Positions 14,023 to 55,892 of a DNA stretch of 64,000 nucleotides are shown here, piece by piece. Both the position numbers and the translations under genes were made by a program. Location: contig CAZSKU010000012.1 of NCBI GenBank assembly GCA_964607515.1, forward strand, positions 1,058-65,057. The letters run 5' to 3'. The notes beneath the pieces are model-generated. The model had not been told where the DNA came from and ran no database searches. It worked only from the letters and a program-made list of their open reading frames with translations. Each line of letters begins with the position of its first letter. Positions within the stretch are counted from its first letter, which is position 1. This stretch comes from an uncultured bacterium (GTDB lineage: Bacteria > Fermentibacterota > Fermentibacteria > Fermentibacterales > JCC-6).

Positions 14023-15135
14023 ATGGGGCGCCGGGTGGCGGTTCTGGGATCCACCGGATCCATAGGGGTTCAGGCCCTGAGGGTGATCAAGGATAGTCCT
14101 TCCCTCGAACTGCATTCGGTTTTCTGCGGATCGTCCGCCGAAGCGCTGGCCGACCAGGTCAGACGGTACCGGCCGGAACTGGCGGGCATCGCCACCCCCC
14201 CCGGGGGAACCCCTCCCGAGGGGGTGTGTTCGGGTCCCGGATGCCTCCGAAGGATGATTGAAGGCGCCGACATGGTGCTCAACGCCATCGTGGGCAGCGC
14301 CGGCCTGGAAGCCAGCCTGGCCGCCCGGGAGATGGGAATCCCCCTGGCGCTGGCCAACAAGGAGAGCCTGGTCGTCGGGGGCGACCTGTTGACGGATTAT
14401 CTGGAGAAGGGTCTGGTGATCCCCGTGGACAGCGAGCACAGCACGGTTTTCCGCTGCCTCTCGGGGGAAGCCCGGCCTCCGCTGAGAATTCTTCTCACCG
14501 CCAGCGGCGGAGCCCTCAGGGACACACCCCTGGAGGAGGTTCACAGGGCTACCGTGGAAAAGGTGCTGGCTCACCCCAACTGGCACATGGGGCCCAGGAT
14601 AACCGTTGACTCGGCATCCATGGTGAACAAGGCCTTCGAGGTGATCGAGGCCCGGAGGCTCTTTCCCGGAATTCCGGTAGGAGTGGTGGTGCATCCGGAG
14701 AGCATCGTGCACTCCATGGTGGAGACCGCCGACGGGGCCTGGAAGGGGCTCATGGGGCTGCCGGACATGAGGGTTCCCATATCGTTCGCACTCCACTGGC
14801 CCGATCTTTCCGCAGCGGCCCCGGATACCGGGGAGTCCCCGGTGGATTGGGGAACCCTGAGTTTCAGGGAGCTGGACGAGCGCCGTTATCCCGCCTTCAC
14901 CGCAGTCCTTGAGGCCTTCCGGGCCGGAGGGACGGCCCCGGCGGCGGCCAACGCCGCGGACGAGGAGGCGGTGGAAGCCTTTCTCTCCGGAAGGATTCCC
15001 TTCGGAGCCATAGCCCTGGTGATCGCCGGGGTGGTCAGTGAACACCGCCCCCGGCCGGTAACGGACCTGGAGACAATCCTCGAGGCGGACGCCGGAGCCA
15101 GGGCGGCGGCCCGGCGCATGATGGAGGTCCTGTGA
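14023..15135 (+). CDS. dxr: 1-deoxy-D-xylulose 5-phosphate reductoisomerase
   Basis: VAVLGSTGSIGVQAL...LANKESLVVGG...PVDSEHS...NWHMGPRITVDSASMVNKAFEVIEA. Confidence 0.9.
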   Translation: MGRRVAVLGSTGSIGVQALRVIKDSPSLELHSVFCGSSAEALADQVRRYRPELAGIATPPGGTPPEGVCSGPGCLRRMIEGADMVLNAIVGSAGLEASLAAREMGIPLALANKESLVVGGDLLTDYLEKGLVIPVDSEHSTVFRCLSGEARPPLRILLTASGGALRDTPLEEVHRATVEKVLAHPNWHMGPRITVDSASMVNKAFEVIEARRLFPGIPVGVVVHPESIVHSMVETADGAWKGLMGLPDMRVPISFALHWPDLSAAAPDTGESPVDWGTLSFRELDERRYPAFTAVLEAFRAGGTAPAAANAADEEAVEAFLSGRIPFGAIALVIAGVVSEHRPRPVTDLETILEADAGARAAARRMMEVL

Positions 15136-16382
15136 ACAGCGCGCTGGCGGTGGTTTTCGGCCTTGGGATCATCGTGTTTTTTCACGAACTCGGCCATTTC
15201 CTCATGGCCAAAGCCGTGGGCCTTCCCGTGGAGAGATTCTCCATGGGGTTCCCTCCGATCCTGTTCAGACTGAAGCGGGGCGGGACGGAGTACTGCATCG
15301 GAGCCGTTCCCCTGGGGGGATTCGTGAAGGTTGACCTGGGCACCTCCGGAAACCACGGTGAGGCGCCGGTCAAGGTGGCGTGGTGGAAGAGGGCCCTCGT
15401 GGTGCTTGCGGGACCGGGGATGAACCTCGTTCTTGCTTTCCTTCTTATTCTTCTGGTCCTCGGCGCCATCGGAACCCGGGTCCCCGACTCGGACCCGCTG
15501 GTGGACGACCCATACGGTGTGCCCGGTCTTCTCCGGGGCGACAGGATCGTCGCGGTGAACGACCTGCCCGTGGAGAGCTGGGAGCAGGTCTTTGAGGAGA
15601 CGCTCCGCGCCCCCGGGGGATTCTTTACGGTGGCAAGGGAAGGTTCGACAGAGCTGGAGGTTCCCTACTCCCTCACTCCCGAGTCAGCCCCGGGATTCAC
15701 CCCGCTTCTGCCCACGGTGATAGGGGAGGCCTCGGTGGGTCTTCCCGCCTACGAGGCCGGGCTAAGAACCGGAGACAGCATCATCTCCGCCGGGGGGGTA
15801 CCCCTGTCGGCTTTCAGCGACCTGCAGGCCAGGGTGGCAGGGTTCCAGGGAAGGTATCTGGAGGTGGTCTTCTCCAGGGGCGGCGCCATAGACACGATTT
15901 TCGTGGAACCCATTGACTACCAGGGCAGGAATCTGATCGGGGTCACGCCCCTCACCCGAACCCGCACCGTCACCCTGCCCCCGGGAAGGGCCCTGGCGGT
16001 GGCCGCCGCCGCGACGGCGGAAGGTGCAGGGGCCTTTTTCACGGGAATCCTGGCCCTTATCCTGAGGCCGGTTCAGCTGGTGCGCATGTCCGGCGGTCCT
16101 GTGTTCGTGGCGGAAACCCTGGGCCAGCAGGCCGCCTTCGGGCTGGCCAGGCTTCTGGAGACGGTCTCCTACCTGTCTCTGGCGATCATGGGGTTCAATC
16201 TTCTGCCGGTTCCCCTGCTGGACGGGGGGCAGTTCCTTATCCTGTTCTACGAGGGTGTCAGGGGAAGGCCCGCGTCGAAAAAACACATCCAGATCGCCCA
16301 GCAGGTGGGTTTCTTTCTGCTGCTTTTGCTTTTCGTGGCGGTGATCTGGCGGGACGTGGCCAGGGTGGTCACCAGGGTCTGA
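15132..16382 (+). CDS. rseP: RIP site-2 metalloprotease RseP (M50)
   Basis: HELGHFLMAKAVGLPVERFSMGFPP, a PDZ region, and the second metal-binding motif LAIMGFNLLPVPLLDGG. Confidence 0.9.
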   Translation: MNSALAVVFGLGIIVFFHELGHFLMAKAVGLPVERFSMGFPPILFRLKRGGTEYCIGAVPLGGFVKVDLGTSGNHGEAPVKVAWWKRALVVLAGPGMNLVLAFLLILLVLGAIGTRVPDSDPLVDDPYGVPGLLRGDRIVAVNDLPVESWEQVFEETLRAPGGFFTVAREGSTELEVPYSLTPESAPGFTPLLPTVIGEASVGLPAYEAGLRTGDSIISAGGVPLSAFSDLQARVAGFQGRYLEVVFSRGGAIDTIFVEPIDYQGRNLIGVTPLTRTRTVTLPPGRALAVAAAATAEGAGAFFTGILALILRPVQLVRMSGGPVFVAETLGQQAAFGLARLLETVSYLSLAIMGFNLLPVPLLDGGQFLILFYEGVRGRPASKKHIQIAQQVGFFLLLLLFVAVIWRDVARVVTRV

Positions 16383-16396
16383 CCGACCCGCGCGTG

Positions 16397-16744
16397 TCAG
16401 ATTCTTCCGCCGGGGGTGGCCGGAGGTTCCAGGGGGCTCTCCCCGAAGGGTGATTCCAGGAGAAGCAGCGTGTCCGAGGCGGCCCGGTAGAACAGGGTCC
16501 AGGCGGCCGGGTTGTGCCTTCCAAGCTCGGCCACCGCCCTGCCCAGGGAATCGGAGGGAGCCTCCCTGCGCAGGGGATGGCCCGGGGGAAAGGCTAGGTA
16601 CCTGGCCACCGCCCCGCCGGCATCCCTGAGCCGATCTCTCTGGTCGGGGGTCAGATCACCGCCGGACCCAGGGGAACCGCCGCATCCGGAGACGGCTATG
16701 ATCAAGGCGCCCAGGGCCGACAGCACGATTGTTGCAGCTTTCAT
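16397..16744 (-). CDS. small hypothetical lipoprotein
   Basis: Internal start MKAATIVLSALGALIIAVSGCGG gives a signal peptide with a lipobox (VSGC). The ORF-track start further upstream would lack any signal sequence. Confidence 0.4.
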   Translation of the reverse strand: MKAATIVLSALGALIIAVSGCGGSPGSGGDLTPDQRDRLRDAGGAVARYLAFPPGHPLRREAPSDSLGRAVAELGRHNPAAWTLFYRAASDTLLLLESPFGESPLEPPATPGGRI

Positions 16745-16796: not shown

Positions 16797-19643
16797 ATGG
16801 CATCGAGGTTCCTGTTCGCCTTCGCGGTCGTCTTTTCGGTATCGGCTGCATCGGCAACCGGATACGGAAGGAACCGGGTGTACACCGGCGATAATCCCTG
16901 GTGGGAGCTTCATTCCAGCCGGTTCACCGTCTATTACGAAGAGGGCAACGAACAGGTTGCGGAGAGTACGGTGGTGATCGCCGAGAGAGCCATGCAGGGC
17001 CTGTCGTCCACCTTCGAGTACCTTCCTTCCCAGCCGATACCTGTGGTGGTCTATCGCTCCCCCGGCAGGTTCCGCCAGACAACCATCATCAGCGGGGAGG
17101 TCGGCGAGGGGGTCGGCGGTTTCACAGAGTTCTTCAAGGGCCGGGTGGTTGTTCCCTACGGCGGGGTCTTCAGCGAGTACCGCCACGTGCTGGAGCACGA
17201 AGTGAACCACGCCTTCGTCTACGACATGCTCTACGACAGAAGTCTGTATGGAATAGTCCGCACGAAGGCCCCCCTGTGGTCCCTGGAGGGGCTGGCCGAG
17301 TACACCTCCCAGGGGTGGGACATAGACAGCGAGTCGGAATTCCGGGACATGGTAATCGCCAACATGATCGTACCCATCCCGCAACTGTCCGCCCGGGGCG
17401 ACTACCTGGTGTACCGGGAGGGCCAGGCCGTCTATCACTTCATGGTGCAGCGATACGGCGAGGCCCGGTACATAACCTTCGTCCGGCACCTCAGGGACAA
17501 CGAGGGGCTCTCCGCGGCGATCAGGGAAGCATTCGACATGACCGTGGACCAGTTTAGCGAGAGGTTCATGGAGTGGGCCAGGGAAACCTACTGGGCCCCT
17601 GTGTCCACGGGCGAGAGCCCGTCGGACATAGGGTCCCCGGTGATTCTCGACGGACGGAACGGCAGGAAGAGGGTTGTTCTGGCGGAACCGGTCATCTCTC
17701 CCGACGGTTCCATGGCCGCCGGAGTGGAGGTGCACCGGGGAAGGTTCTCCACGGTGGTGCGTGACGCCGGCGACGGCCGGGAGATACTCCGGCCGCTCTC
17801 CGGAGGCGGACTGGTGGAATACAGCCCGTCGCCTATGTTCAGGACCGTCGCCTTCTCCCCCGGGTCCGACTCCCTGGCGGTGGCATACCAGGGGTTGTTC
17901 TCCGACGGACTGATGGTTCTGAAGATCGGCGGCGGATCCAGAAGGCTTTCCCGGGACTTCGAGCTGGTCAGGGACCCGGTGTGGAACCCCTCCGGGGGAG
18001 CGGTGGCTTTCAGCGCCCTGAATGAAGGCGTTCTGGACATCTTCCTGTGGGAGCCCGCAACCGGCCGTCTGGAGAAACTCACCCGGGGCGACAGCAGCCC
18101 CAGGGACCTCTGGTGGGGCGACCCGGGAATCCTGTTCGTGGGCGAAAGGCAAAACGGCCGGATCTACACCCTGAACTCCGTCACTCCCGGGAGCGATTCC
18201 GAGATCCTTTACGAAACCCCCTACCCGATCCAGAACCCGGTGTCCTATCCGGAGGGCGTGGTCTTCATCATGGATACCGGCTGCGGCGCCAACTTCCACC
18301 TGCTTTCCTCCGAGACCGGGGAGGTCGCCAGACTCACCGACCTCTACCGCACCCCATCTTCCCTCTCCAGGGCCTCCGGAACGGCGCTGTCACTCTTCTC
18401 GGCTTCGGACTGGAGCGGCGCCGGGCTTTTCATCACCAGGGACCTGTCCCTGCGGGAAGGCCGGTCCACGGAGTGCCCACGGGAGGGTGTGGAACCGGAT
18501 TCCTCCTACGCCCCGGTTCCCGGATTCAACCCGGAATGGCGCATATCTCCGTACGATCCGGCTCTGAGCATAGACTACGTGAGCGCTTCGGCGGGATTCG
18601 ACAGTTACGCCGGGCTGGCGGGCTACTCTCAGTTCATCTTCAGCGACGTCCTCGCAAGGCATCAGCTGGCACTTCTGATGGACCTCAACGGAGAGGTGAG
18701 CGACGTGGACGCTGGGGTTTTCTACTCCAACATCGAAAAGCCCGTCCAGTTCGGGGTTTCCCTGTATCGGCAGGCCAACAGGTACCGCTTCACCGACACC
18801 GTGACCGGCGACCGGGACTACGTAAGGGACACTGAGATAGGGGCGGGTTTGGAGTTCAGGTATCCCTTCACCAGGTCCCTGAGGGCTTCCCTGGGGACGT
18901 CCTACCGCCGGCTTGACCGGGAGGGTCTCTGGTCCACCGACATCAACCTTCGGGAGAACATCTTCAGCATCACCGGCCGGATGGTGAAGGACAACGCCCT
19001 GTGGGGTTCCACCGGACCCAGGGTGGGAAGCCGGCTGTCGCTTACCGCGGACTGGGCCCCGGGGCTTGGGGACAACGCCTCGTACACAACCCTGCAGGCG
19101 GATATGAGGAACTACACGTGGATATCCGGGCAGGTCACCCTGGCCACCAGACTCGCGGCGGGCGCCAGTTTCGGGGACGACCCCCAGAGGTTTTTCCTCG
19201 GGGGAGCGATTCCCCACAGGAGAAGCACCGGCGACGTTGAGGGGGTCGAGGACCTGTTCGGCTTCTACACCAGCTACGCCGACCTTCTCCGGGGCTTCGA
19301 CTACGTGGAGTTCAACGGTTCGAAGTACGCCCTGGGCTCCCTGGAACTCCGATTCCCGGTGGTCAATCAGCTCAGTCTCGCGGCTCCCCTGCCGGTCACC
19401 CTCACCGGTGGCCGGGGGGTGATCTTCACCGACATCGGAACCGCCGTGGACGACGTGAATGATTTCCGGGGCGCCTCCACCGGAGGCGGATACAGGCTGG
19501 AGGATCTCAAGATGGGGTTCGGCTTCGGGCTCAGGTTCAATCTCAGCTTCTTCGTCTTCCTGTGGGATTGCGCCTGGAGAACCGATCTGAACGGTGTCAG
19601 TGCCAAACCCGAGCACTACGTGACCCTCGGAGCCGAGTTCTGA
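16797..19643 (+). CDS. Omp85-family outer-membrane protein with N-terminal gluzincin-like (peptidase MA-type) domain and PD40 beta-propeller instead of POTRA repeats
   Basis: A signal peptide (MASRFLFAFAVVFSVSAASA) is followed by HEVNH (HExxH) and an EGLAEY third-ligand-like motif about 35 aa downstream. PD40-like blades follow (ISPDGSMAA, AFSPGSDSLAV, WNPSGGAVAFSA). The C-terminal roughly 330 aa is Omp85/BamA-like and ends ...RTDLNGVSAKPEHYVTLGAEF with a C-terminal Phe. It sits directly after rseP, where bamA normally lies. Confidence 0.8.
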   Translation: MASRFLFAFAVVFSVSAASATGYGRNRVYTGDNPWWELHSSRFTVYYEEGNEQVAESTVVIAERAMQGLSSTFEYLPSQPIPVVVYRSPGRFRQTTIISGEVGEGVGGFTEFFKGRVVVPYGGVFSEYRHVLEHEVNHAFVYDMLYDRSLYGIVRTKAPLWSLEGLAEYTSQGWDIDSESEFRDMVIANMIVPIPQLSARGDYLVYREGQAVYHFMVQRYGEARYITFVRHLRDNEGLSAAIREAFDMTVDQFSERFMEWARETYWAPVSTGESPSDIGSPVILDGRNGRKRVVLAEPVISPDGSMAAGVEVHRGRFSTVVRDAGDGREILRPLSGGGLVEYSPSPMFRTVAFSPGSDSLAVAYQGLFSDGLMVLKIGGGSRRLSRDFELVRDPVWNPSGGAVAFSALNEGVLDIFLWEPATGRLEKLTRGDSSPRDLWWGDPGILFVGERQNGRIYTLNSVTPGSDSEILYETPYPIQNPVSYPEGVVFIMDTGCGANFHLLSSETGEVARLTDLYRTPSSLSRASGTALSLFSASDWSGAGLFITRDLSLREGRSTECPREGVEPDSSYAPVPGFNPEWRISPYDPALSIDYVSASAGFDSYAGLAGYSQFIFSDVLARHQLALLMDLNGEVSDVDAGVFYSNIEKPVQFGVSLYRQANRYRFTDTVTGDRDYVRDTEIGAGLEFRYPFTRSLRASLGTSYRRLDREGLWSTDINLRENIFSITGRMVKDNALWGSTGPRVGSRLSLTADWAPGLGDNASYTTLQADMRNYTWISGQVTLATRLAAGASFGDDPQRFFLGGAIPHRRSTGDVEGVEDLFGFYTSYADLLRGFDYVEFNGSKYALGSLELRFPVVNQLSLAAPLPVTLTGGRGVIFTDIGTAVDDVNDFRGASTGGGYRLEDLKMGFGFGLRFNLSFFVFLWDCAWRTDLNGVSAKPEHYVTLGAEF

Positions 19644-20338
19644 TGGGAAACGAGACCCTTTGGTTCATAAGCCTTCTGCTCGCCCTGTCCGCCACGCTGA
19701 TGGTGTTCCGGTACGGGGGAAGGACGGGTCTCATCGCCCTGGTGTCTTCGGTGATCATCCTGTGCAACCTGGAGGTGATGAAGCTCACCACCTTCTTCGG
19801 CGTCACGGTGACCCTGGGAAACATCCTCTACGGAGTGATCTTCTTCGCCACAGACCTTCTGAACGAGTTCTACGGCCCTTCCGAGGCCAGGAAGGCGGTG
19901 ATCGCCGGCTTCGTTTCCATGATCGCCATGACCCTGGTGATGCAGTCGGCCCTGCTCTTCACGACTGCGCCGGACCCCTGGGCCATGGAGGTGAACCAGG
20001 CCATGGGGCTTTTGTTCGGTTTCATGCCGAGGCTCGCCGCCGCCAGCGTGGCCGCCTATCTGGTCAGCCAGTTTCATGACGTCTGGGCGTACAACCTTAT
20101 CAGAAAACGCACGAAGGGCCGGTTCCTCTGGCTCAGGAACAACGGCTCCACCATGGTGAGCCAGCTCATAGACACGGTTATCTTCTGCGGAATCGCCTTC
20201 TGGGGCGTTCTGGAGAAGAGGGTGTTCCTGGACGTATTGGTGTCAACCTACCTGATGAAGTTCATTGTGGCGGCCTTCGACACCCCGTTCATGTACCTGG
20301 GGAAGAGGATGGCCGTAAAGGGAGGTGAAAGGGATTGA
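19643..20338 (+). CDS. yhhQ: queuosine-precursor transporter (YhhQ/DUF165 family)
   Basis: Polytopic protein with the DUF165 profile (GNILYGVIFFATDLLNEFYG...FVSQFHDVWAYNLIRKRTKGRFLWLRNNGSTMVSQLIDTVIF). Its ATG overlaps the previous stop (ATGA). Confidence 0.8.
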   Translation: MGNETLWFISLLLALSATLMVFRYGGRTGLIALVSSVIILCNLEVMKLTTFFGVTVTLGNILYGVIFFATDLLNEFYGPSEARKAVIAGFVSMIAMTLVMQSALLFTTAPDPWAMEVNQAMGLLFGFMPRLAAASVAAYLVSQFHDVWAYNLIRKRTKGRFLWLRNNGSTMVSQLIDTVIFCGIAFWGVLEKRVFLDVLVSTYLMKFIVAAFDTPFMYLGKRMAVKGGERD

Positions 20339-21132
20339 ATATCCTGGGAGCCCTGATGCTCCTGGCCGCGGGGGCCTTCGCCTGGACATGCCCCGCCTGC
20401 GGATCGGAGCAGGCCGGAACCGTCTGCGCCGACTGCGGCCTGCCCGAGGTTCCCGCGGGGATGGCGTACGTTCCCGCCGCCGACGTGGTGGCGGATGGCG
20501 ATACCCTTCACGTGGGGGCCTTTTTCATCGATTCGTTCCCGGTGGTGTACCGGGACGTCCTTCCATGGCTTGGTGAGAACTGCCGGGACGGAAGGGTTCT
20601 GGCCTCGGTGATCACCGGGCAGTACAACGAGAGCGGCCACTTCCTGGCCTTCACCCCCTTCGTGGCATCTCCCTCCGGGGACTACACGGTCCCCGCGGCG
20701 GTGATGGACAGACCAGCCGCGGGATTCACATGGACCGGGGCGGACTGGTTCCTGTCCTCCCGGGGTCTCCGGCTTCCCACCCTGGCGGAACTCCACTCCG
20801 CCAGTGCTTTGGGGATCATCCAGCCTTTCAGCGCCTACAGCGAGATGCAGCTGTACTCGGCCCTTCTGGAGAGCAGCCTGGGCTCCGTGCTGGGAGCCCT
20901 TTCCCGGCAGGCAATGTTCGCCGGATTCAGCACCGCCGAGGAGAGGGTGATGTGGGAACTCACCTGTACCGGGTTCCGCGGCGATCCCCTCTCCGGTGCT
21001 CCCGGAGACGAAGGGCCTGTCGTCACCCTGTTCAAACCCCTGGAAGTGCCGGTGACAGCCGGTGCGGGAAGGGACATGGGATACTTCAACGTCGTCTTCC
21101 GGGGGGCCATCGACCTCCCGGGCTTTGAGTGA
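20335..21132 (+). CDS. secreted FGE-sulfatase (SUMF1/GldK-like) domain protein
   Basis: A signal peptide is followed by MAYVPAADVV...FFIDSFPVVYRDVLPW...WFLSSRGLRLPTLAELHSA, which matches the FGE-sulfatase fold motifs (RLPTEAEWEyAA-like). It is short at 265 aa. Confidence 0.6.
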   Translation: MNILGALMLLAAGAFAWTCPACGSEQAGTVCADCGLPEVPAGMAYVPAADVVADGDTLHVGAFFIDSFPVVYRDVLPWLGENCRDGRVLASVITGQYNESGHFLAFTPFVASPSGDYTVPAAVMDRPAAGFTWTGADWFLSSRGLRLPTLAELHSASALGIIQPFSAYSEMQLYSALLESSLGSVLGALSRQAMFAGFSTAEERVMWELTCTGFRGDPLSGAPGDEGPVVTLFKPLEVPVTAGAGRDMGYFNVVFRGAIDLPGFE

Positions 21133-21145
21133 AGGGAGCACCGCC

Positions 21146-21739
21146 TTGAGAAAACTCGTCATCGCGGCAACCCTGGCGGCCCTGGTCGCCGGGTGCGGGG
21201 GACGAACCGTCACCAGGACCGATCCCGGGACCGTCACCGACCTGAGCGGTTACTGGAACGACACCGATTCCCGGATGGTGGCCGACTCCATGGTGGCCCA
21301 GTGTCTGGCAGGAAACTGGCTTCTCTCGTCCCTTCGGGGCGAGCAGGGCAGGGGCGAGACGCCGAAACCCGTGATAGTGGTGGGAGGGGTCAGAAACCAG
21401 AGCCTGGAGCACATCAATACCGGAGTTTTCATGAGCGACATCGAGAGGGCCCTGCTGAACAGCGGCCGGGTGCTCATCGCCGCGGGAGGAGAAGCCCGGG
21501 AGGAAGTGCGGGAGGAACGTCGCGACCAGTCCATCTTCGCGTCCCCTGAAACGGCGGCGGCCTTCGGAAGGGAAGTGGGTGCCGACTTCGTGATGGTGGG
21601 GACCGTCAACTCCGTGGAGGACCAGGAAGGCGATGTCCGGGCGGTCTACTACCAGGTCAACCTGGAACTCGTGAGCGTAGAGACGGCCCTCAAGGTCTGG
21701 ATGGGCTCCACCGAGATCAAGAAGATCATCGAGTGGTGA
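21146..21739 (+). CDS. LpoB/COG3417-like lipoprotein
   Basis: The TTG start is preceded by GAAGGGAG. The lipobox is LVAGCGG. The C-domain (PKPVIVVGGVRNQSLEHINTGVFMSDIERALLNSGRV...FVMVGTVNSVEDQEGDVRAVYYQVNLELVSVETALKVW) resembles PBP-activator LpoB-type folds. Confidence 0.5.
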   Translation: MRKLVIAATLAALVAGCGGRTVTRTDPGTVTDLSGYWNDTDSRMVADSMVAQCLAGNWLLSSLRGEQGRGETPKPVIVVGGVRNQSLEHINTGVFMSDIERALLNSGRVLIAAGGEAREEVREERRDQSIFASPETAAAFGREVGADFVMVGTVNSVEDQEGDVRAVYYQVNLELVSVETALKVWMGSTEIKKIIEW

Positions 21740-23037
21740 AATTCCTTCCCGTTCCCGCACTGCTGGCGTTGACGCTGGCTTGTGCGACGGGCTACACTGG
21801 CACCGTCCGTCCCGTGGTTGACATGCTGGAGGACGAAAGGCCCGAAGCGGCCATGGAAAGGCTTCGGGAAGTCTTCCCCGATTCCACCGGGAACGACAGA
21901 CTCCTGTATCTGATGGAACTTGGGAACCTGTCCCGGTACGCCGGGCTTCTTCCGGTCTCCCGGGCCGCCCTGCTCAGGGCGGCCGCCCTGAGCGACCGGC
22001 AGCGGGGCATCCGGGTGGACCAGGAGGCGGCGTCCATGCTCACCGGCGAACTGGCCCGGGAGTTCCGCGGCGCCGACTACGAGAAGGTCTTCATCAACTA
22101 CGCCCTCGCGGCGGGTTACGCATCGGAGGGGAACCTGGAGGAGGCCCTGGTGGAGGCCCGCCGGGTGAACCAGAAGCTCCGGGAGTTCAACGTCGAGTAC
22201 GGGGAAAACCCCAACAGGTACATAGACGACGCCTTCATCAGGTACTTCATGGGAACCCTTTACGAAGCCGGGGGAGAGCTGTCCGACGCCCTGGTGAGCT
22301 ACCGGCGGGCGCTTCAGGTATACGAAGGGGACTACTCAAGGAACTATGGCGTTCCTCCGCCGGAAAGACTCAGGGCGGACCTCCTCCGGTTGTCCTTCGA
22401 GACGGGTTTTCAAAGCCTTCAGTCCGAACTGGAACTGAAATGGCCGGATACGGACTGGGAGAACACAGGTCCGGGCCGGGGATTCGGGGAACTGGTAGTG
22501 GTGCTGGAGGCCGGAAGCATCTCCAGAAGACACGAGGTGAGCCATACCGTCACCACGGAGGACCGGGTCTTCCAGATTTCCCTTCCCGCCATCCCCGACT
22601 TTCCCCGACGGCCTGTGACCGCCACGGCCTCGGCGGCCGGGCACCGGACCGGCTTTTTCCTGGTGCAGGACATGAACGCGCTGGCCAGGGCCAACCTGGA
22701 GGACCACGCAGCCCGGGACCTGGTGAGGGCCGCCGCCCGGACCCTGGTCAAGGCCGGGGTGGCGCAGCTCGGGGAGGAACTGGCGGAAAACGCCAGCGAC
22801 GATTCCCGGGTGGGCGACGTGGTGGGCCTGATCCTGAGCATCGCCGGGGCGGTGACCGACCGGGCTGACCTCAGGGCCTGGCTGACGATGCCGGCCCAGA
22901 TCCACATGGCCAGGCTGAGGGTTCCCCCGGGAACATGGCCCCTGACGGTGACCGTGAACGGAGTCTCAACCAGCCACGCTCCCGTGGAGGTGCCGGAGGG
23001 CGAAATGGTGTTCGTCTTCGTGAGGCGGAACCTGTGA
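21733..23037 (+). CDS. hypothetical lipoprotein with a TPR-like N-terminal region
   Basis: The GTG start overlaps the previous gene. The lipobox is LTLACATG. The N-terminal region is helical and TPR-like, and the C-terminal half is uncharacterised. Confidence 0.5.
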   Translation: MVKFLPVPALLALTLACATGYTGTVRPVVDMLEDERPEAAMERLREVFPDSTGNDRLLYLMELGNLSRYAGLLPVSRAALLRAAALSDRQRGIRVDQEAASMLTGELAREFRGADYEKVFINYALAAGYASEGNLEEALVEARRVNQKLREFNVEYGENPNRYIDDAFIRYFMGTLYEAGGELSDALVSYRRALQVYEGDYSRNYGVPPPERLRADLLRLSFETGFQSLQSELELKWPDTDWENTGPGRGFGELVVVLEAGSISRRHEVSHTVTTEDRVFQISLPAIPDFPRRPVTATASAAGHRTGFFLVQDMNALARANLEDHAARDLVRAAARTLVKAGVAQLGEELAENASDDSRVGDVVGLILSIAGAVTDRADLRAWLTMPAQIHMARLRVPPGTWPLTVTVNGVSTSHAPVEVPEGEMVFVFVRRNL

Positions 23038-29077: not shown

Positions 29078-30364
29078 ATGACAAGGACAACGCCCCTGCT
29101 TCTCCTGTTCCTGGCCGCTCTTGCTGCGGCCCAGACCGGAGAGACCCAGCCACCCCCCGCGGACTCCGGGGTCGTCGAGTCGGCCGCGGAACCCTTACCG
29201 GCGGAACCCGAACCGGTTCCCGCGGCTGAGATCGCCCCCCCGGGGGGAATACTGGTGACGGACTACCCGGACGACGCCGGCGACAGGCTCATGGTCTGTT
29301 TCGAGCCGGGCGCCGAAGCCGGCGATCCCGACCTCTTTGCGGCGTACCAGGTTTTCAGGAGACCCCTCGGGGCGCCTGACTCGGCCTGGGCCATGGTTAA
29401 CATGATCCCGGTGGGCGAGGGAACCAGCTTCATAGACGGCTTCGACCCGGACTTCCCCGTGGAGGAGGGTGCGCAGTACGAGTACCGGGTTGACGCACTC
29501 TACCTGGATCAGACCGTGGTTGCGGGGGAGGCCATTGCCGCCCAGGAGGTCGCATCCGGCCAGTGGTTCCACACCGGCAAAGTCAGGGTGCTGGTCGCCT
29601 GCGCCATATTCCTCGGCCTCATCTTCTACTTCTTCTCCCGGGCCAAGACCGGCGCCAGCATGTACCTTCGGCCGATCGCCGGCATCGAGGCCATTGACGA
29701 GGCCATCGGGCGGGCCACGGAAATGGGCAAGCCCATTCTTTACGTCCCGGGGCTTTCCTACATCGAAGACGTGGCAACCATCGCCAGTCTGACCATCCTG
29801 GGAAGGGTGGCCAGGAAGGTGGCGGAGTACCAGACTCCCCTGTGCGTACCCAACACGGACCCCATAGTCTTCACCGTGGCGGAGGAGGCGGTGAAGCAGG
29901 CGTACCTGGAGGCCGGCCGCCCCGACTCCTACGACCCTGACAGCGTGTTCTTCCTGACCCAGAGCCAGTTCGCCTTCGTGGCGGGGGTGAACGGGATCAT
30001 GATGCGCCAGAAGCCCGCCACCAACTTCTACCTGGGCATGTTCTGGGCTGAGAGCCTGATTCTTGCCGAGACGGGGTCCCTCTCCGGGGCGATCCAGATA
30101 GCCGGCACCGACGCGGTCACCCAGCTTCCCTTCTTCATCACCACCTGCGACTACACCCTGATCGGCGAGGAACTCTACGCCGCCAGCGCCTACCTCAGCC
30201 GGGAGCCCATGCAGATGGGCTCCATCAAGGGACTGGACGCGTGCAAGGCGATACTGATGGTCTTCATCACACTGGGCATCATTCTCGCCCTTGTGGATGT
30301 GGCTGCGGAAACCCAAACCCTGGCGTGGCTCAAAGACCTGGTAACGTCTCAGGTGATGGACTAG
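29078..30364 (+). CDS. uncharacterised membrane protein A1: signal peptide, Ig-like extracytoplasmic domain, TM, conserved ~180-aa core, C-terminal TM
   Basis: MTRTTPLLLLFLAALAAAQT signal peptide. An extracytoplasmic domain contains DGFDPDFP...YEYRVD. TM helix VLVACAIFLGLIFYFF. Conserved core YLRPIAGIEAIDEAIGRATEMGKPILYVPG...FFITTCDYTLIGEELYAASAYL. No family recognised. First gene of the coupled operon. Confidence 0.6.
   Translation: MTRTTPLLLLFLAALAAAQTGETQPPPADSGVVESAAEPLPAEPEPVPAAEIAPPGGILVTDYPDDAGDRLMVCFEPGAEAGDPDLFAAYQVFRRPLGAPDSAWAMVNMIPVGEGTSFIDGFDPDFPVEEGAQYEYRVDALYLDQTVVAGEAIAAQEVASGQWFHTGKVRVLVACAIFLGLIFYFFSRAKTGASMYLRPIAGIEAIDEAIGRATEMGKPILYVPGLSYIEDVATIASLTILGRVARKVAEYQTPLCVPNTDPIVFTVAEEAVKQAYLEAGRPDSYDPDSVFFLTQSQFAFVAGVNGIMMRQKPATNFYLGMFWAESLILAETGSLSGAIQIAGTDAVTQLPFFITTCDYTLIGEELYAASAYLSREPMQMGSIKGLDACKAILMVFITLGIILALVDVAAETQTLAWLKDLVTSQVMD
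29668..30196 (+). repeat. near-identical duplicated segment, copy 1 (inside A1); perfect-identity core about 29768..30195
   Basis: By direct comparison it matches 39258..39784. About 428 bp are 100% identical, with few-mismatch flanks. The coding sequence on either side is divergent. Confidence 0.8.
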
Positions 30365-32677: not shown

Positions 32678-32750
32678 CGGGAACGCCCCCGGTCCTTCCC
32701 GGGCCGGGGGCGCCCATCCTTCCAGAGTGTTCCGGGAGAGGGAGGCTGGC

Positions 32751-35498
32751 ATGAACGGCCTGATCCTGGTAACGGACATCGGAAGCACCACCACAAAGGC
32801 TCTTCTGCTGGATACCGCCGGGGGAATACTCACCCCGGTGGAGAGTTGCGAGGAGCCCACCACCGTGGAAAAACCCCACGAAGACGTGGCCGTCGGTCTG
32901 TTCCGGGCGGTGGACGGCTTGTCCCGCCTGTCCGGAGTGCAGCTGAGGGATGGCGGCCGGTTCCTGGTGCCGTTTTACGCCACCAGTTCAGCGGGAGGCG
33001 GTCTGCAGATACTGGTGATCGCCCTGGCATCCCGTGACACCGGAACAGTGGCAAGGGCGGTGACCTGCGGGGCCGGAGGGGTGGTGCTGGACGCTTTCAA
33101 CATCGACGATGATACCCCAAGAGTGGAGAAGATTCAGAGGATGGCGGGCCTCTCCCCCGACCTGGTGGTGCTGGCGGGAGGGTACGAGGACGGGGCCCTG
33201 GCCGCGGTGGTGAACATGGCCCAGTTGCTTGCCCAGGCAAGCCCCAAACCGAAATACCGGGCAGGAACCCTTCCGGTGGTGTTCTGCGGAAACTCGAAGG
33301 CGGGGGAGTTCGTCAGGGAAGCCCTCGGGGCTGGTTTCAGGCTTTACTGCACGGAGAACATCAGGCCCTCGGGGCTGGAACTCAATCTCAGACCCGCCGT
33401 ACAGATGGTCCAAAGACTCTTCATGGACCACGTGATGCAGATGGCGCCGGGCTACAGTTCCATAGCCGGAGCCGTGTCGGCTCCGATTGTCCCCACACCC
33501 TCGGGCGTGGAACGGATACTTTCCCTGTGGTGCCGGGAGACCGGCAAGTGTGCTCTGCTTGCGGATATGGGCGGGGCCACCACGGACGTGTTCACCGCGG
33601 TCGCCGGGGGGGTCGCGCGAACCGTGAGCGCCAACATCGGGATGAGTTACAGCCTGTCAAACATCCTCAGGGAGGCCGGTCTTCCGGGGATCATGAGGCA
33701 CCTGCCCGGGGTGGATCCTTCACCGGTGCGGGACCGGATACTGGAGAAGACCCTGTTTCCAACCCGGCCCCCCGGCGACGACTTCGGGCTTCGGGTGGAA
33801 CACTCCTGCGCCGCGGAAGGCATGGCCCTGGCCTGCCGGCAGCACCTGGAGTTCTCCTACCGACGGGCCAGGGTGGGTTTTCTCGATCGGCTCAAGCTTC
33901 TTGGAAGGTGCAAGTTCGATCAGAGGTTCAGAACCCTGGACGAGAAGGAAGGCTTCAGCCTGAGCGACTTCGGAACCCTGATCGGAGCCGGCGGCGTCCT
34001 GGCCCACGCCCCAGGGCGTAGGGCCGCCTGGATACTCGCCCAGGGATTCTTTCCCCGGGGAGTCACCACCCTGATGGTGGACAGCCCTTTTCACAGCCCC
34101 CACATGGGTGTGCTCAGCAGCTCCTTTCCCGAGATGGCCCTGGGCTACTACCGCAGCCACTGCCTGAAATCGGTCTGCCGGGTGGTCACCCCGACAGGCT
34201 CCCTCCGGCCTGGCAGGCCGGGGATCGGAGTAAGGGGCCCCCACGTCGAGACGATGGTCCTGGGCGGCGACTTCCTGTACCTGGAGGACGGGAAGGGAAC
34301 GTCCGCCGGAAACTGGCGGGAGACCGAGAGCATTCCGATGCTGGTTGACTGCAGGACGAACCCCGATCAGACACTTCCCGTGGATTTCGACAAGAGGCCG
34401 GCGGAGGTGCTCCCGGTGCCCGCCGCCCGTGAACGACAGGCGAGGTTCTCCGAGCCGGGAGAAATCCTGCACACCTTCTCCCTGCCCTATCCGGGAGAGA
34501 TACTGGTGGGCGCCGGAGATACCGTGGAGCCCGGAACCCTCCTGGGAAGGAACCCTCTCAGCCCTCCAATGGTCTACTTCCTGGACGTCAGGACATCGGG
34601 GGGCTATGACGACGCCACTCCCACCGGGGAAATCCTGGACGGGGTGCTGGTGGCTCCGGGAGACGTTGTGAACCCGGGAAAGCAGGTGTTCCGCAGGATT
34701 GTCAGGCACGGCCTCACCCGGGAGGTACACGAGTTGAAAAGCCCCGTCCGGGGCTTGGTGACCGGTATCGTCCCCCCCGGGCTTGTCTGCCTCAGGGAGA
34801 TACAGGACTACGACGGCAAGCCCCACGTGGTGGATGTGGCGGGACCCCTGGGGATAAAGCCAGGGCACATCCACAGATTCCTGAAGGTGAAGAAGGGCGA
34901 TTTCGTGCTTCAGGGGCAGGCTCTGGCGGCGGGGGAAAGGTTTCCGATGGTAAAGAGCCCGTCCGCTGGCACCATCACAGAGGTGGACAGGGAGTCGGGC
35001 ACCGTGACCGTGCACTACAGAACGGTTCCCGTGGACATGCGATCGCCCATCCACGGGGTTGTGTCGGGGGTTGTTCCGGAGCACTCCGTGACCCTGTCCT
35101 TCCGGGGAACAGTGATGGAGGGGGTGCTGGGGCTGGGAAGGGACACCTACGGCGTCTTCTCCACGGAGCCGGCCCCTGGAGCCCTGGTTCTCAGGATGGG
35201 AACGATGACTCCGGAGGATCTGAGGCGGGCCGTGGACTGCGGCGCGGCGGCGGTGGTATCTGCGGGGATTTCAGGGGAACTGGTGTCCGGCTACCTGGGG
35301 GAGGATCCCGGGGTGATACTCACCGGGGGCGAGGACCTCCCTGTATCCCTGATGGCCGTGTGCGGCGCGGGCTTGAGAAGGTTTTCCGGGGATATATGGA
35401 GGACTCTGGAGGGGCTGCCCGGCCGCCGGGGCGCTCTGTTCACAACCACCAGGATAAGGGCCGGGGTGGAGAGACCCAGGCTTTTCATGGAGGAATGA
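32751..35498 (+). CDS. large ASKHA-superfamily ATPase (GlmL/MutL/EutA-like N-terminal half) fused to a ~450-aa C-terminal region with repeated barrel-sandwich-hybrid-like hairpins
   Basis: The ATG is preceded by GGGAGG. LVTDIGSTTTKALLLD (phosphate-1) and LLADMGGATTDVFTAV (phosphate-2) are typical of GlmL-type actin-fold ATPases. The C-terminus has repeated GDxVxPGxxL-type motifs (GDTVEPGTLLG, GDVVNPGKQVF, KKGDFVLQGQAL). Confidence 0.65.
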   Translation: MNGLILVTDIGSTTTKALLLDTAGGILTPVESCEEPTTVEKPHEDVAVGLFRAVDGLSRLSGVQLRDGGRFLVPFYATSSAGGGLQILVIALASRDTGTVARAVTCGAGGVVLDAFNIDDDTPRVEKIQRMAGLSPDLVVLAGGYEDGALAAVVNMAQLLAQASPKPKYRAGTLPVVFCGNSKAGEFVREALGAGFRLYCTENIRPSGLELNLRPAVQMVQRLFMDHVMQMAPGYSSIAGAVSAPIVPTPSGVERILSLWCRETGKCALLADMGGATTDVFTAVAGGVARTVSANIGMSYSLSNILREAGLPGIMRHLPGVDPSPVRDRILEKTLFPTRPPGDDFGLRVEHSCAAEGMALACRQHLEFSYRRARVGFLDRLKLLGRCKFDQRFRTLDEKEGFSLSDFGTLIGAGGVLAHAPGRRAAWILAQGFFPRGVTTLMVDSPFHSPHMGVLSSSFPEMALGYYRSHCLKSVCRVVTPTGSLRPGRPGIGVRGPHVETMVLGGDFLYLEDGKGTSAGNWRETESIPMLVDCRTNPDQTLPVDFDKRPAEVLPVPAARERQARFSEPGEILHTFSLPYPGEILVGAGDTVEPGTLLGRNPLSPPMVYFLDVRTSGGYDDATPTGEILDGVLVAPGDVVNPGKQVFRRIVRHGLTREVHELKSPVRGLVTGIVPPGLVCLREIQDYDGKPHVVDVAGPLGIKPGHIHRFLKVKKGDFVLQGQALAAGERFPMVKSPSAGTITEVDRESGTVTVHYRTVPVDMRSPIHGVVSGVVPEHSVTLSFRGTVMEGVLGLGRDTYGVFSTEPAPGALVLRMGTMTPEDLRRAVDCGAAAVVSAGISGELVSGYLGEDPGVILTGGEDLPVSLMAVCGAGLRRFSGDIWRTLEGLPGRRGALFTTTRIRAGVERPRLFMEE

Positions 35499-38737: not shown

Positions 38738-38766
38738 ATTATACCAGGCCTGGTGTGCTTCTCCAA
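38738..38766 (-). promoter_or_regulatory. candidate sigma70 promoter for selD (-35 TTGGAG, 17-nt spacer, -10 TATAAT)
   Basis: Read on the minus strand: TTGGAGaagcacaccaggcctggTATAAT. It lies about 25 nt upstream of the 38710 ATG. Confidence 0.4.
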
Positions 38767-38796
38767 TTCCGGGGACGGTCGCGAAAGGGCGGTCAC

Positions 38797-39951
38797 ATGG
38801 TTCACCTGCTCATGCCGGGGGTACTCTGCCTGATGGTTCCGGAAATAGCGTCGGTAACCGATGTTCCCAACGACGCCGGCGAATTGCTGATGGTGGAGGT
38901 GTCGTTTCCCTCAGGGGTCGAGGAGGTCGGCGGTTTCCTCCTCTGGCGCACACCCGCCGACCTGGACGCCTGGGAGCTGGTGATGGTGGAGGCTCTCCCG
39001 CTGGAGTCCAACCTGCTGATGGACGGTTTCGATCCGGACTATCCCCTGGTTCCCGGAACCCGGTACCTGTACCGTCCCGGATTGATCACCCTTCAGGGGG
39101 ACACCCTCCCCGGCCCGGTCTTCACTGGCGCCGAAGCTCCCTCGGGGTCATGGTTCAACACCGGCGAGACGCCCACCCTGGCGGCCTGCCTGATTTTCAT
39201 GGCGCTGATCTTCTACTACTTCCAGAGAGCCCTCAAGGGCGCGGAGTTCTACCTCCGGCCGATCGCCGGCATCGAGGCCATTGACGAAGCCATCGGACGG
39301 GCCACGGAAATGGGCAAGCCCATTCTTTACGTCCCGGGGCTTTCCACCATAGACGACGTGGCAACCATCGCCAGTCTGACCATCCTGGGAAGGGTGGCCA
39401 GGAAGGTGGCGGAGTACCAGACTCCCCTGTGCGTACCCAACACGGACCCCATAGTCTTCACCGTGGCGGAGGAGGCGGTGAAGCAGGCGTACCTGGAGGC
39501 CGGCCGCCCCGACTCCTACGACCCTGACAGCGTGTTCTTCCTGACCCAGAGCCAGTTCGCCTTCGTGGCGGGGGTGAACGGGATCATGATGCGCCAGAAG
39601 CCCGCCACCAACTTCTACCTGGGCATGTTCTGGGCTGAGAGCCTGATTCTTGCCGAGACGGGGTCCCTCTCCGGGGCGATCCAGATAGCCGGCACCGACG
39701 CGGTCACCCAGCTTCCCTTCTTCATCACCACCTGCGACTACACCCTGATCGGCGAGGAACTCTACGCCGCCAGCGCCTACCTGGGGCGGGAGCCCAGGCA
39801 GATGGGGGGTATAAAAAGCCTTGACGCATGCAAGGTCATCATCATGACCCTTATAGTTTTGGGAGTAATCGCATTCCTGGCGGATTTCCTGGCCGGAACG
39901 GATTTCCTTCCGCGGATCAGGGGCTGGATCACCACCCCCGAGGGCTTCTGA
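38797..39951 (+). CDS. uncharacterised membrane protein A2, orphan paralog of A1
   Basis: Same architecture as A1: N-terminal hydrophobic leader, Ig-like domain with DGFDPDYP, a TM helix, a core essentially identical to A1, and a divergent C-terminal TM tail. RBS GCGAAAGGGCGG resembles the A1 RBS GCGAAAGGCGGG. Confidence 0.6.
   Translation: MVHLLMPGVLCLMVPEIASVTDVPNDAGELLMVEVSFPSGVEEVGGFLLWRTPADLDAWELVMVEALPLESNLLMDGFDPDYPLVPGTRYLYRPGLITLQGDTLPGPVFTGAEAPSGSWFNTGETPTLAACLIFMALIFYYFQRALKGAEFYLRPIAGIEAIDEAIGRATEMGKPILYVPGLSTIDDVATIASLTILGRVARKVAEYQTPLCVPNTDPIVFTVAEEAVKQAYLEAGRPDSYDPDSVFFLTQSQFAFVAGVNGIMMRQKPATNFYLGMFWAESLILAETGSLSGAIQIAGTDAVTQLPFFITTCDYTLIGEELYAASAYLGREPRQMGGIKSLDACKVIIMTLIVLGVIAFLADFLAGTDFLPRIRGWITTPEGF
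39258..39784 (+). repeat. near-identical duplicated segment, copy 2 (inside A2)
   Basis: See copy 1 at 29668..30196. Confidence 0.8.
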
Positions 39952-55749: not shown

Positions 55750-55892
55750 GCTTGATGCCTCCGGTGGAGCGGAACTATTCCGATTAAGGGAATACACTGG
55801 TTCCTTTGCCGGAAATATGTTCACACCTGTTGCCCGGGGAGGTATGTCATCTGAAACGGAACATTGCATCGAGCCGGGAGTCCGCCCCCAAG

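Follow-up and report, generated by a model that had tools for sequence, protein, structure and literature searches.

A WD40-like Omp85 protein of Fermentibacterota with a putative zinc peptidase domain and a TolB-like propeller

We analyzed a 64,000-nucleotide stretch of DNA (the window; contig CAZSKU010000012.1 of GenBank assembly GCA_964607515.1) from an uncultured bacterium of the phylum Fermentibacterota, focusing on a gene downstream of rseP that encodes a 948-residue protein ending in an Omp85 barrel. Its architecture, together with homologs in the same taxa, places the protein in the WD40-like subfamily of the Omp85 superfamily, and by its sequence it is a paralog, neither BamA nor TamA. 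As a whole, the data are best explained by an outer membrane-anchored, periplasm-facing WD40-like Omp85 zinc peptidase paralog that would act in the quality control or processing of envelope proteins, a reading we favor with modest confidence. The propeller-peptidase Omp85 architecture is already known, and the window gene adds a member from Fermentibacterota. A preliminary description of the window had chosen the right class, that of a non-canonical Omp85 paralog, but had treated the architecture as an oddity of the bamA locus; it is instead that of a widespread subfamily catalogued in 2014. For the window, the value of the analysis is thus mostly clarification, in that an “odd bamA” becomes a catalogued paralog, while counts of how widely the catalytic motifs are kept, the context of an rseP/tamAB cluster, and a variant whose peptidase is probably dead are what it adds to the 2014 catalogue.

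The protein begins with a signal peptide, which is followed by a gluzincin domain and a TolB-like propeller of six blades; a disordered linker then leads to the C-terminal Omp85 barrel of 16 strands. The boundaries of these five parts are given in Table 1. The AlphaFold2 model, for which a 71-sequence alignment of full-length homologs (28–93% identity) served as input, has a predicted local distance difference test score (pLDDT) of 84.3 and a predicted template modeling score (pTM) of 0.82. Domain profiles and the model agree with the four-part anatomy of the preliminary description, except that the barrel, put there at ~330 residues, extends over ~358 (591–948) by the model boundaries. A Shine-Dalgarno-like run (GAAGGGGG) lies upstream of the ATG at 16797, and the N terminus, MASRFLFAFAVVFSVSAASA followed by TG, reads as a cleavable signal of the signal-peptidase-I type. 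A scan for promoters and terminators was uninformative.

The barrel identifies the 948-residue protein as a member of the Omp85 superfamily. The Omp85 Pfam family PF01103 matches residues 648–927 (E = 8.5e-16, above the gathering score), and in Foldseek comparisons the barrel matches those of BamA and TamA at E = 1e-10. POTRA domains are missing: PF07244, PF08479, and PF08478 gave no match at E≤1, and in the model ~40 disordered residues alone separate propeller from barrel, so that the absence of POTRA noted in the preliminary description holds and the interval in question is a disordered linker. Across homologs, this linker varies from 33 to 183 residues and is conserved in neither length nor sequence.

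The propeller is supported by the NCBIfam TolB propeller model, which matches the 948-residue protein at E = 4e-4, by a family profile that matches TolB chains in the PDB at E = 1e-26, and by a Foldseek search of the PDB with the AlphaFold model, in which TolB is among the matches. The “TolB-like PD40 blades” proposed earlier therefore stand as a propeller fold, but not as a Pfam assignment, since PD40 is not detected by Pfam in the window protein; homologs carry PF07676 together with PF01103, and Tricorn_N and Tricorn_2nd matches also occur among them. With TolB and tricorn the protein shares a six-bladed propeller of the PD40 type. Identity as TolB was rejected (TIGR02800, 19.4 bits versus a cutoff of 343, over the propeller part only), and, unlike TolB, the protein lacks an N-terminal TolA-binding domain and has its propeller covalently tied to a peptidase domain and a barrel.

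The N-terminal domain has the conserved residues expected of a gluzincin. H134, E135, H138, E164, G165, A167, and E168 are invariant in the 71 aligned homologs, as are Y206 and Y220. Among 83 family open reading frames (ORFs) from 80 GTDB species, 81 have HExxH followed 26–30 residues on by EGxAE, which argues that the HExxH is not a chance occurrence, and the form GG[FVLN]TE is found in 57 of the 83. In the model the two putative zinc-ligand motifs lie on an active-site helix and a Glu helix, as in thermolysin-like folds, and fold comparison returns M1 aminopeptidases and M9 collagenases as the closest folds. This likeness is one of fold only: a sequence-profile search of the domain against solved structures gave nothing meaningful, identity to M9 collagenases, M1 aminopeptidases, and thermolysin is 7–16%, and the HExxH-to-Glu spacing of the window protein is 25 residues. 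The domain is not that of an M1 aminopeptidase, as there is no Peptidase_M1 Pfam match and the motif is GGFTE, not GxMEN; the one M9 Pfam match, in a homolog, is marginal. For Peptidase_MA_2 (PF13485), homologs score 39.5, 39.3, and 36.2 bits, above the gathering cutoff of 32.4. The preliminary description had called the HExxH...EGLAEY module gluzincin/peptidase-MA-like, and the invariance of the motifs in the 71 homologs and the gluzincin-type fold of the model bear out the gluzincin assignment. Together, the invariant HExxH...E and the predicted gluzincin fold suggest that the window protein is an active zinc peptidase, a proteolytic activity that we infer from these two features.

Of the ten subfamilies that Heinz & Lithgow (PMC4104836) distinguished within the Omp85/TpsB superfamily, one is “WD40-like”; this subfamily and noNterm are recognized as devoid of POTRA. 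Their Table S3 lists ~100 WD40-like proteins with a match to the BamA or TamA barrel and a match to TolB (2w8b/2ivz), without POTRA, and gives as “best aminopeptidase hit” F3 (1z5h), APN (4kxd), collagenase (4ar1/4ar9), or ERAP1 (3qnf); the text of that study treats the propeller as a platform resembling a BamA-BamB fusion and does not discuss the peptidase. Our fold comparison independently recovered the PDB families of that table. The window protein shares with the subfamily the three-part architecture of barrel, TolB-like propeller, and aminopeptidase/collagenase-like N-terminal domain and the lack of POTRA, whereas the Fermentibacterota branch differs in its degenerate PD40 signature, its short linker, and its fixed position after rseP. 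Ignavibacteria, Bacteroidota, and relatives of Caldithrix and Cloacimonas are common to the family as found here and to the 2014 list, and a homolog from a metagenome-assembled genome (MAG) of Ignavibacterium album, a species named in that list, is 26% identical over residues 1–948. Cytophaga hutchinsonii, Rhodothermus marinus, Myxococcus, and Vibrio vulnificus also appear there as hosts of the subfamily.

The family is large. The combination of PF13485, a PD40/Tricorn propeller, and PF01103 is common among database homologs, with ~30% identity in Eisenbacteria and Zixibacteria and 43–93% in Fermentibacteria and Aegiribacteria; full-length homologs within Fermentibacterota cover the same range of 43–93%, and an ortholog of 86% identity lies on a 519-kb contig of the Fermentibacterota assembly GCA_040364315.1. 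When one genome for each GTDB species was scanned, at least 333 family loci came up, mostly in phyla of the Fibrobacterota-Chlorobi-Bacteroidota (FCB) group, with members in Sabulitectum, Zixibacteria, Ignavibacteria, Kapaibacteria, Bacteroidota, Calditrichota, Marinimicrobia, KSB1, WOR-3, Fibrobacterota, and Eisenbacteria; Sabulitectum (Candidatus Fermentibacterota) was the nearest among the matches listed, at 56–57% identity, in accord with the window being from that phylum. A profile of the peptidase domain retrieved 1,289 representative clusters at E≤1e-30. Among the best 150 of these, the domain starts within ~80 residues of the N terminus (nearly all within 55) and the proteins are mostly 900–1,190 residues long; as the domain is always N-terminal there, it appears essentially specific to the propeller-Omp85 fusion. 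Cluster annotations read “hypothetical protein” or “BamA/TamA family” only. Some genomes carry two paralogs of the family, sometimes ~4 kb apart (L070 and L081 in Eisenbacteria; L057 and L084 in one Zixibacteria MAG).

Every Fermentibacterota locus examined keeps the family gene linked to rseP, and so do the Eisenbacteria-like loci L007, L075, L071, and L092. In two Eisenbacteria-like genomes (L071, 1930–13093; L092, 8617–19036 of a 4.16-Mb contig), rseP, an Omp85 gene with three POTRA domains (~655–706 residues), tamB (~1,360 residues), the family gene, and uvrD follow one another on the same strand, which suggests that rseP, tamA-like, tamB, and the family gene form a conserved envelope-biogenesis cluster. 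The Fermentibacterota arrangement looks like this cluster minus the tamA-like/tamB pair, and the position of the window gene beside rseP probably reflects it. The link to TamA/TamB thus lies in the gene order of these two genomes; the protein itself differs from TamA in lacking the three POTRA domains, which bind TamB, and the Fermentibacterota locus has no tamA-like/tamB pair. Adjacency to tamB as a family-wide association was rejected, as it is limited to L071 and L092: a jackhmmer search with the L071 TamB against 87 loci returned L071 only, and the L092 case was found later. In a paralogous subclade with the C terminus FFGWDF (Ignavibacteria, Bacteroidota, and Calditrichota; L048–L083, for example L054, 5833–7050, and L064, 13827–14732), a gene for a BamB-like PQQ_2 propeller lies immediately downstream in 12 loci, and a PEGA-domain protein is encoded downstream in 13. 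On a separate metagenomic contig (L095, 1765–10697), the gene for a 2,079-residue TamB-like protein (DUF748, TamB_N, TamB) precedes and overlaps that for an 898-residue POTRA-Omp85.

According to the reading we favor, the protein would be exported by the Sec system, and its 16-stranded barrel, with an aromatic β-signal, would be inserted into the outer membrane, leaving a two-domain module tethered on the periplasmic side by the flexible linker of variable length. This module would consist of the six-bladed TolB-like propeller and, N-terminal to it, a gluzincin zinc peptidase (HExxH + Glu) capable of catalysis. Tricorn, prolyl oligopeptidase, and DPP-IV are propeller-gated peptidases, and by analogy the propeller would most likely bind or select unfolded polypeptides for the peptidase. 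The barrel would anchor peptidase activity at the inner face of the outer membrane and, since the Omp85 loop-6 lock is conserved, may also dock β-strand substrates. The likely role is linked to outer-membrane biogenesis: the protein would process envelope proteins or control their quality by proteolysis. This assignment, including the presumed substrate class, is drawn from the strongly conserved barrel, from the gene context of rseP, tamA-like, and tamB, and from the BamB-like neighbor.

BepA, a zinc protease of the M48 family associated with the β-barrel assembly machinery (BAM) of E. coli, is a soluble, peripheral periplasmic protein with TPR repeats that acts on stalled outer-membrane proteins. 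It provides the favored functional model, as it too joins a periplasmic zinc protease to a protein-binding repeat domain at the outer membrane; the window protein differs in being MA_2/M9-like rather than M48, in having a propeller in place of TPR, and in being fused to a barrel rather than soluble. Tentatively, and with clearly less confidence than in the general reading, one may go further and regard the protein, in the Fermentibacterota/Eisenbacteria lineage, as the third member of an ancestral rseP/tamA-like/tamB/X cluster: a self-anchored, BepA-like arm for proteolytic quality control in the service of BAM or of the translocation and assembly module (TAM), in which stalled β-barrel substrates would be caught by strand augmentation at the seam and passed to a propeller-gated zincin.

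To our knowledge, the Omp85 proteins characterized so far insert or translocate other proteins, with the exception of the recently re-interpreted PlpD. The subfamily, with an invariant zincin active site, a conserved Omp85 barrel, and more than 1,000 sequence clusters across the FCB superphylum, would, if its members are barrel-anchored quality-control proteases, represent a new functional class in the Omp85 superfamily, and would explain how outer-membrane assembly is policed in bacteria without the proteobacterial set of BAM accessory proteins.

Several observations weigh against a quality-control peptidase. The Peptidase_MA_2 match of the window protein itself (residues 74–260, E = 8.5e-6) reaches 26.1 bits and stays below the 32.4-bit gathering cutoff. 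The rseP/tamAB synteny is confined to Fermentibacterota and Eisenbacteria, and the neighbors in Zixibacteria, Ignavibacteria, and Bacteroidota differ, for example with aroA upstream in eight loci. No Omp85 gene that could serve as BamA lies within ~10 kb past either end of the window (~84 kb read in all). The WD40-like subfamily was still uncharacterized according to Hanson et al. in 2024 (PMC11116518), and our literature searches found no functional study of the propeller-peptidase Omp85 architecture. Finally, in the Eisenbacteria-like member of L092 (16067–19036), HQMVH replaces HExxH and GGFTE is lost, while EGLAEY and the remaining architecture are kept. By its sequence this member is probably a catalytically dead pseudo-peptidase, so that catalysis would be dispensable in at least some lineages, and the main task of the family may instead be to bind or to scaffold.

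The L092 variant thus leads to a first alternative, which we regard as possible but not likely: propeller and zincin fold would form a non-catalytic periplasmic platform for TAM or BAM partners, Pal-like lipoproteins, or peptidoglycan-linked proteins, with proteolysis secondary or absent. Besides the L092 member, which keeps its architecture without its motifs, the position of the family gene directly after tamB in two genomes, the BamB-like gene downstream in the paralogous subclade, and the BamA-BamB-fusion-like platform proposed by Heinz & Lithgow (PMC4104836) are in line with such a scaffold. The retention of HExxH and the Glu motif in 81 of 83 ORFs, from at least 10 phyla, and their invariance in the 71 homologs are however the pattern expected if catalysis is under purifying selection, and the window protein carries every motif.

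It is rather unlikely that the protein is a nutritional oligopeptidase, trimming imported or periplasmic oligopeptides for an amino-acid-dependent fermenter with the barrel as a mere anchor. M1 aminopeptidases and M9 collagenases are its structural neighbors, propeller-gated oligopeptidases are a known design, and a dependence on amino acids and proteases from outside was reported for Fermentibacter genomes (PMC5030696), but conservation of the barrel (RGF, FxDxG, and many other invariant residues) equals that of the enzyme, which is unexpected for a passive anchor, and the neighboring genes are those of envelope biogenesis, not peptide transporters.

The quality-control reading places the N-terminal module in the periplasm, whereas the preliminary description had suggested a surface-exposed protease. 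All characterized N-terminal domains of Omp85 proteins are periplasmic, none having been observed outside, and PlpD, the patatin-Omp85 prototype of type Vd, also keeps its enzyme domain in the periplasm (PMC11116518); this rule, which now extends to PlpD, predicts that the module faces the periplasm here as well. Like PlpD (PMC11116518), the window protein has an enzyme domain N-terminal to an Omp85 barrel and would reuse the Omp85 scaffold for periplasmic enzymology; PlpD however combines a patatin lipase with one POTRA, and the window protein, with a zincin peptidase domain and a propeller, has neither a patatin nor a POTRA match. Type-V-like export of the N-terminal module through its own barrel, or with its help, would recall the enzyme-linker-barrel order of the original type Vd model, and the long Pro/Glu-rich linker could span the pore. 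With PlpD resolved as periplasmic and no Omp85 N-terminal domain seen outside (PMC11116518), and with a folded propeller and peptidase module of ~530 residues that would have to unfold without ATP, ahead of a linker (33–183 residues) conserved in neither length nor sequence, we hold surface display to be very improbable.

A divergent BamA, by which the protein would be the essential β-barrel insertase of Fermentibacterota in the bamA slot, with propeller and peptidase in place of POTRA, is as a reading hardly credible. The protein does share with BamA the 16-stranded barrel, loop-6 RGF, FxDxG, a C-terminal aromatic residue, and a locus beside rseP; these Omp85 hallmarks, the phylum-wide place right after rseP, and the lack of another Omp85 gene in the ~84 kb read would all suit an insertase. 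Within the window, phmmer against six-frame ORFs found the target only, and Pfam searches of the other large ORFs revealed no second Omp85. On the other side, the BamA equivalog TIGR03303 scores 26.4 bits against a cutoff of 297.15 and matches the barrel part only, the five POTRA domains of BamA are missing, and skp and lpxD do not follow downstream. POTRA5 is the BamD-binding part in known BAM complexes, which speaks against an insertase without POTRA. In L071 and L092 rseP is separated from the family gene by a POTRA-Omp85 gene and tamB, so that the family protein coexists with a canonical POTRA-Omp85 there and does not replace it; with the low TIGR03303 score, this speaks against the “divergent BAM component” of the preliminary description. 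BamA was present in every diderm surveyed by Heinz & Lithgow, including cultured hosts of WD40-like Omp85 proteins (PMC4104836). Fermentibacter genomes were described as those of archetypal diderms with lipopolysaccharide (PMC5030696), which makes a canonical BamA likely in the source genome of the window. A search seeded with the Eisenbacteria POTRA-Omp85 gave, among the 120 matches listed, almost only Eisenbacteria-like proteins and none identifiable as Fermentibacterota; the distant POTRA-Omp85 matches P0234 and P0241 could not be assigned to that phylum. The aromatic β-signal at its own C terminus would in addition make the protein itself a client of BAM. That it is the sole Omp85 of Fermentibacterota, the extreme version of this idea, has the slimmest chance of all.

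By Pfam assignment, the family gene is preceded in the window by rpsI, rpsB, pyrH, frr, uppS, cdsA, dxr, and rseP, in this order, and followed by Vut_1/yhhQ and by the genes for an unknown protein, an LpoB-like lipoprotein, a TPR protein, DeoC, and UvrD; skp and lpxD are absent from these downstream neighbors. The flanks given in the preliminary description, rseP before the gene, yhhQ after it, and no skp or lpxD, are thereby confirmed, and the gene is indeed the next after rseP on its own strand, although a minus-strand ORF of 115 residues intervenes (Table 1). In all eight Fermentibacterota loci examined, a small minus-strand ORF separates rseP from the family gene, and the downstream series from the unknown protein through the LpoB-like lipoprotein, the TPR protein, and DeoC to UvrD is the same; in L009, an additional minus-strand gene for a TPR protein lies between rseP and the family gene.

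Table 1. Position of the gene, its parts and its close neighbors in the window
Feature	Coordinates	Strand	Basis
Whole gene, WD40-like (propeller-peptidase) Omp85 protein	16797..19643	+	ORF and translation, 948 residues
Signal peptide, residues 1–21, ...SAASA/TG, without lipobox Cys	16797..16859	+	Sequence; low-pLDDT helix at residues 1–22 in the model
Predicted gluzincin-type metallopeptidase domain, residues ~22–280	16860..17636	+	Model: alpha/beta domain, residues ~25–280
GGFTE, residues 107–111, putative substrate-binding edge strand	17115..17129	+	G107, G108, T110, E111 invariant in 71 sequences
HEVNH, residues 134–138, two putative zinc ligands and catalytic Glu	17196..17210	+	Invariant in 71/71; model helix 125–146
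EGLAEY, residues 164–169, putative third zinc ligand E164	17286..17303	+	Model helix 160–172
TolB-like β-propeller, residues 283–548, ~25 strands, ~6 blades	17643..18440	+	Profiles, Foldseek, DSSP
Disordered linker, residues 549–590	18441..18566	+	pLDDT <50 at residues 563–575
16-stranded Omp85 barrel, residues 591–948, C terminus ...TLGAEF	18567..19643	+	PF01103; DSSP strands at residues 591–946
Loop-6 RGF motif, residues 832–834 (LRGF, residues 831–834)	19290..19298	+	R832, G833 invariant; long loop between strands 11 and 12
FTDIG (FxDxG-type) motif, residues 877–881	19425..19439	+	D879 invariant; F877, G881 conserved in at least 90% of sequences
rseP, Peptidase_M50 + PDZ	15132..16382	+	Pfam
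Lipoprotein-like ORF, 115 residues, ...IIAVSGC..., lipobox VSGC, divergent from the family gene	16397..16744	-	Translation; no Pfam match
yhhQ/Vut_1 transporter	19643..20338	+	Pfam; ATG overlaps the TGA of the family gene (TGATG)
Downstream block: unknown ~260-residue protein, LpoB-like lipoprotein, 434-residue TPR protein	20335..23037	+	Pfam; 8/8 Fermentibacterota loci

Homologs of the 115-residue lipoprotein-like ORF occupy the corresponding place in Fermentibacterota loci (E = 2e-49 to 1e-9); the ORF was rejected as a conserved partner of the family gene, being unrelated to the small ORF in L007 and absent in L092. The yhhQ gene is missing from the Aegiribacteria and Sabulitectum loci and present in only some Fermentibacterota loci, which marks it as a lineage-specific insertion and not part of the same system. 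The three genes at 20335–23037 may constitute an envelope module. The ~260-residue protein of this block has an N-terminal CxxC...CxxC motif, and its Aegiribacteria homolog a faint FGE-sulfatase match.

Farther away in the window, two DUF6754 paralogs (29078–30364 and 38755–39951, both on the plus strand, E ~1e-115 each) lie ~9 kb apart. A 923-residue protein (32727–35498, plus strand) has an N-terminal PF13941 “MutL” domain and a weak RnfC_N match. The 728-residue ORF at 50872–53058 (plus strand) has no Pfam match and is called as a gene on the related contigs L088 and L089. A 936-residue protein on the minus strand (53059–55869) combines a region like ADP-forming acyl-CoA synthetases with a C-terminal GNAT domain, which is the layout of Pat-type protein acetyltransferases.

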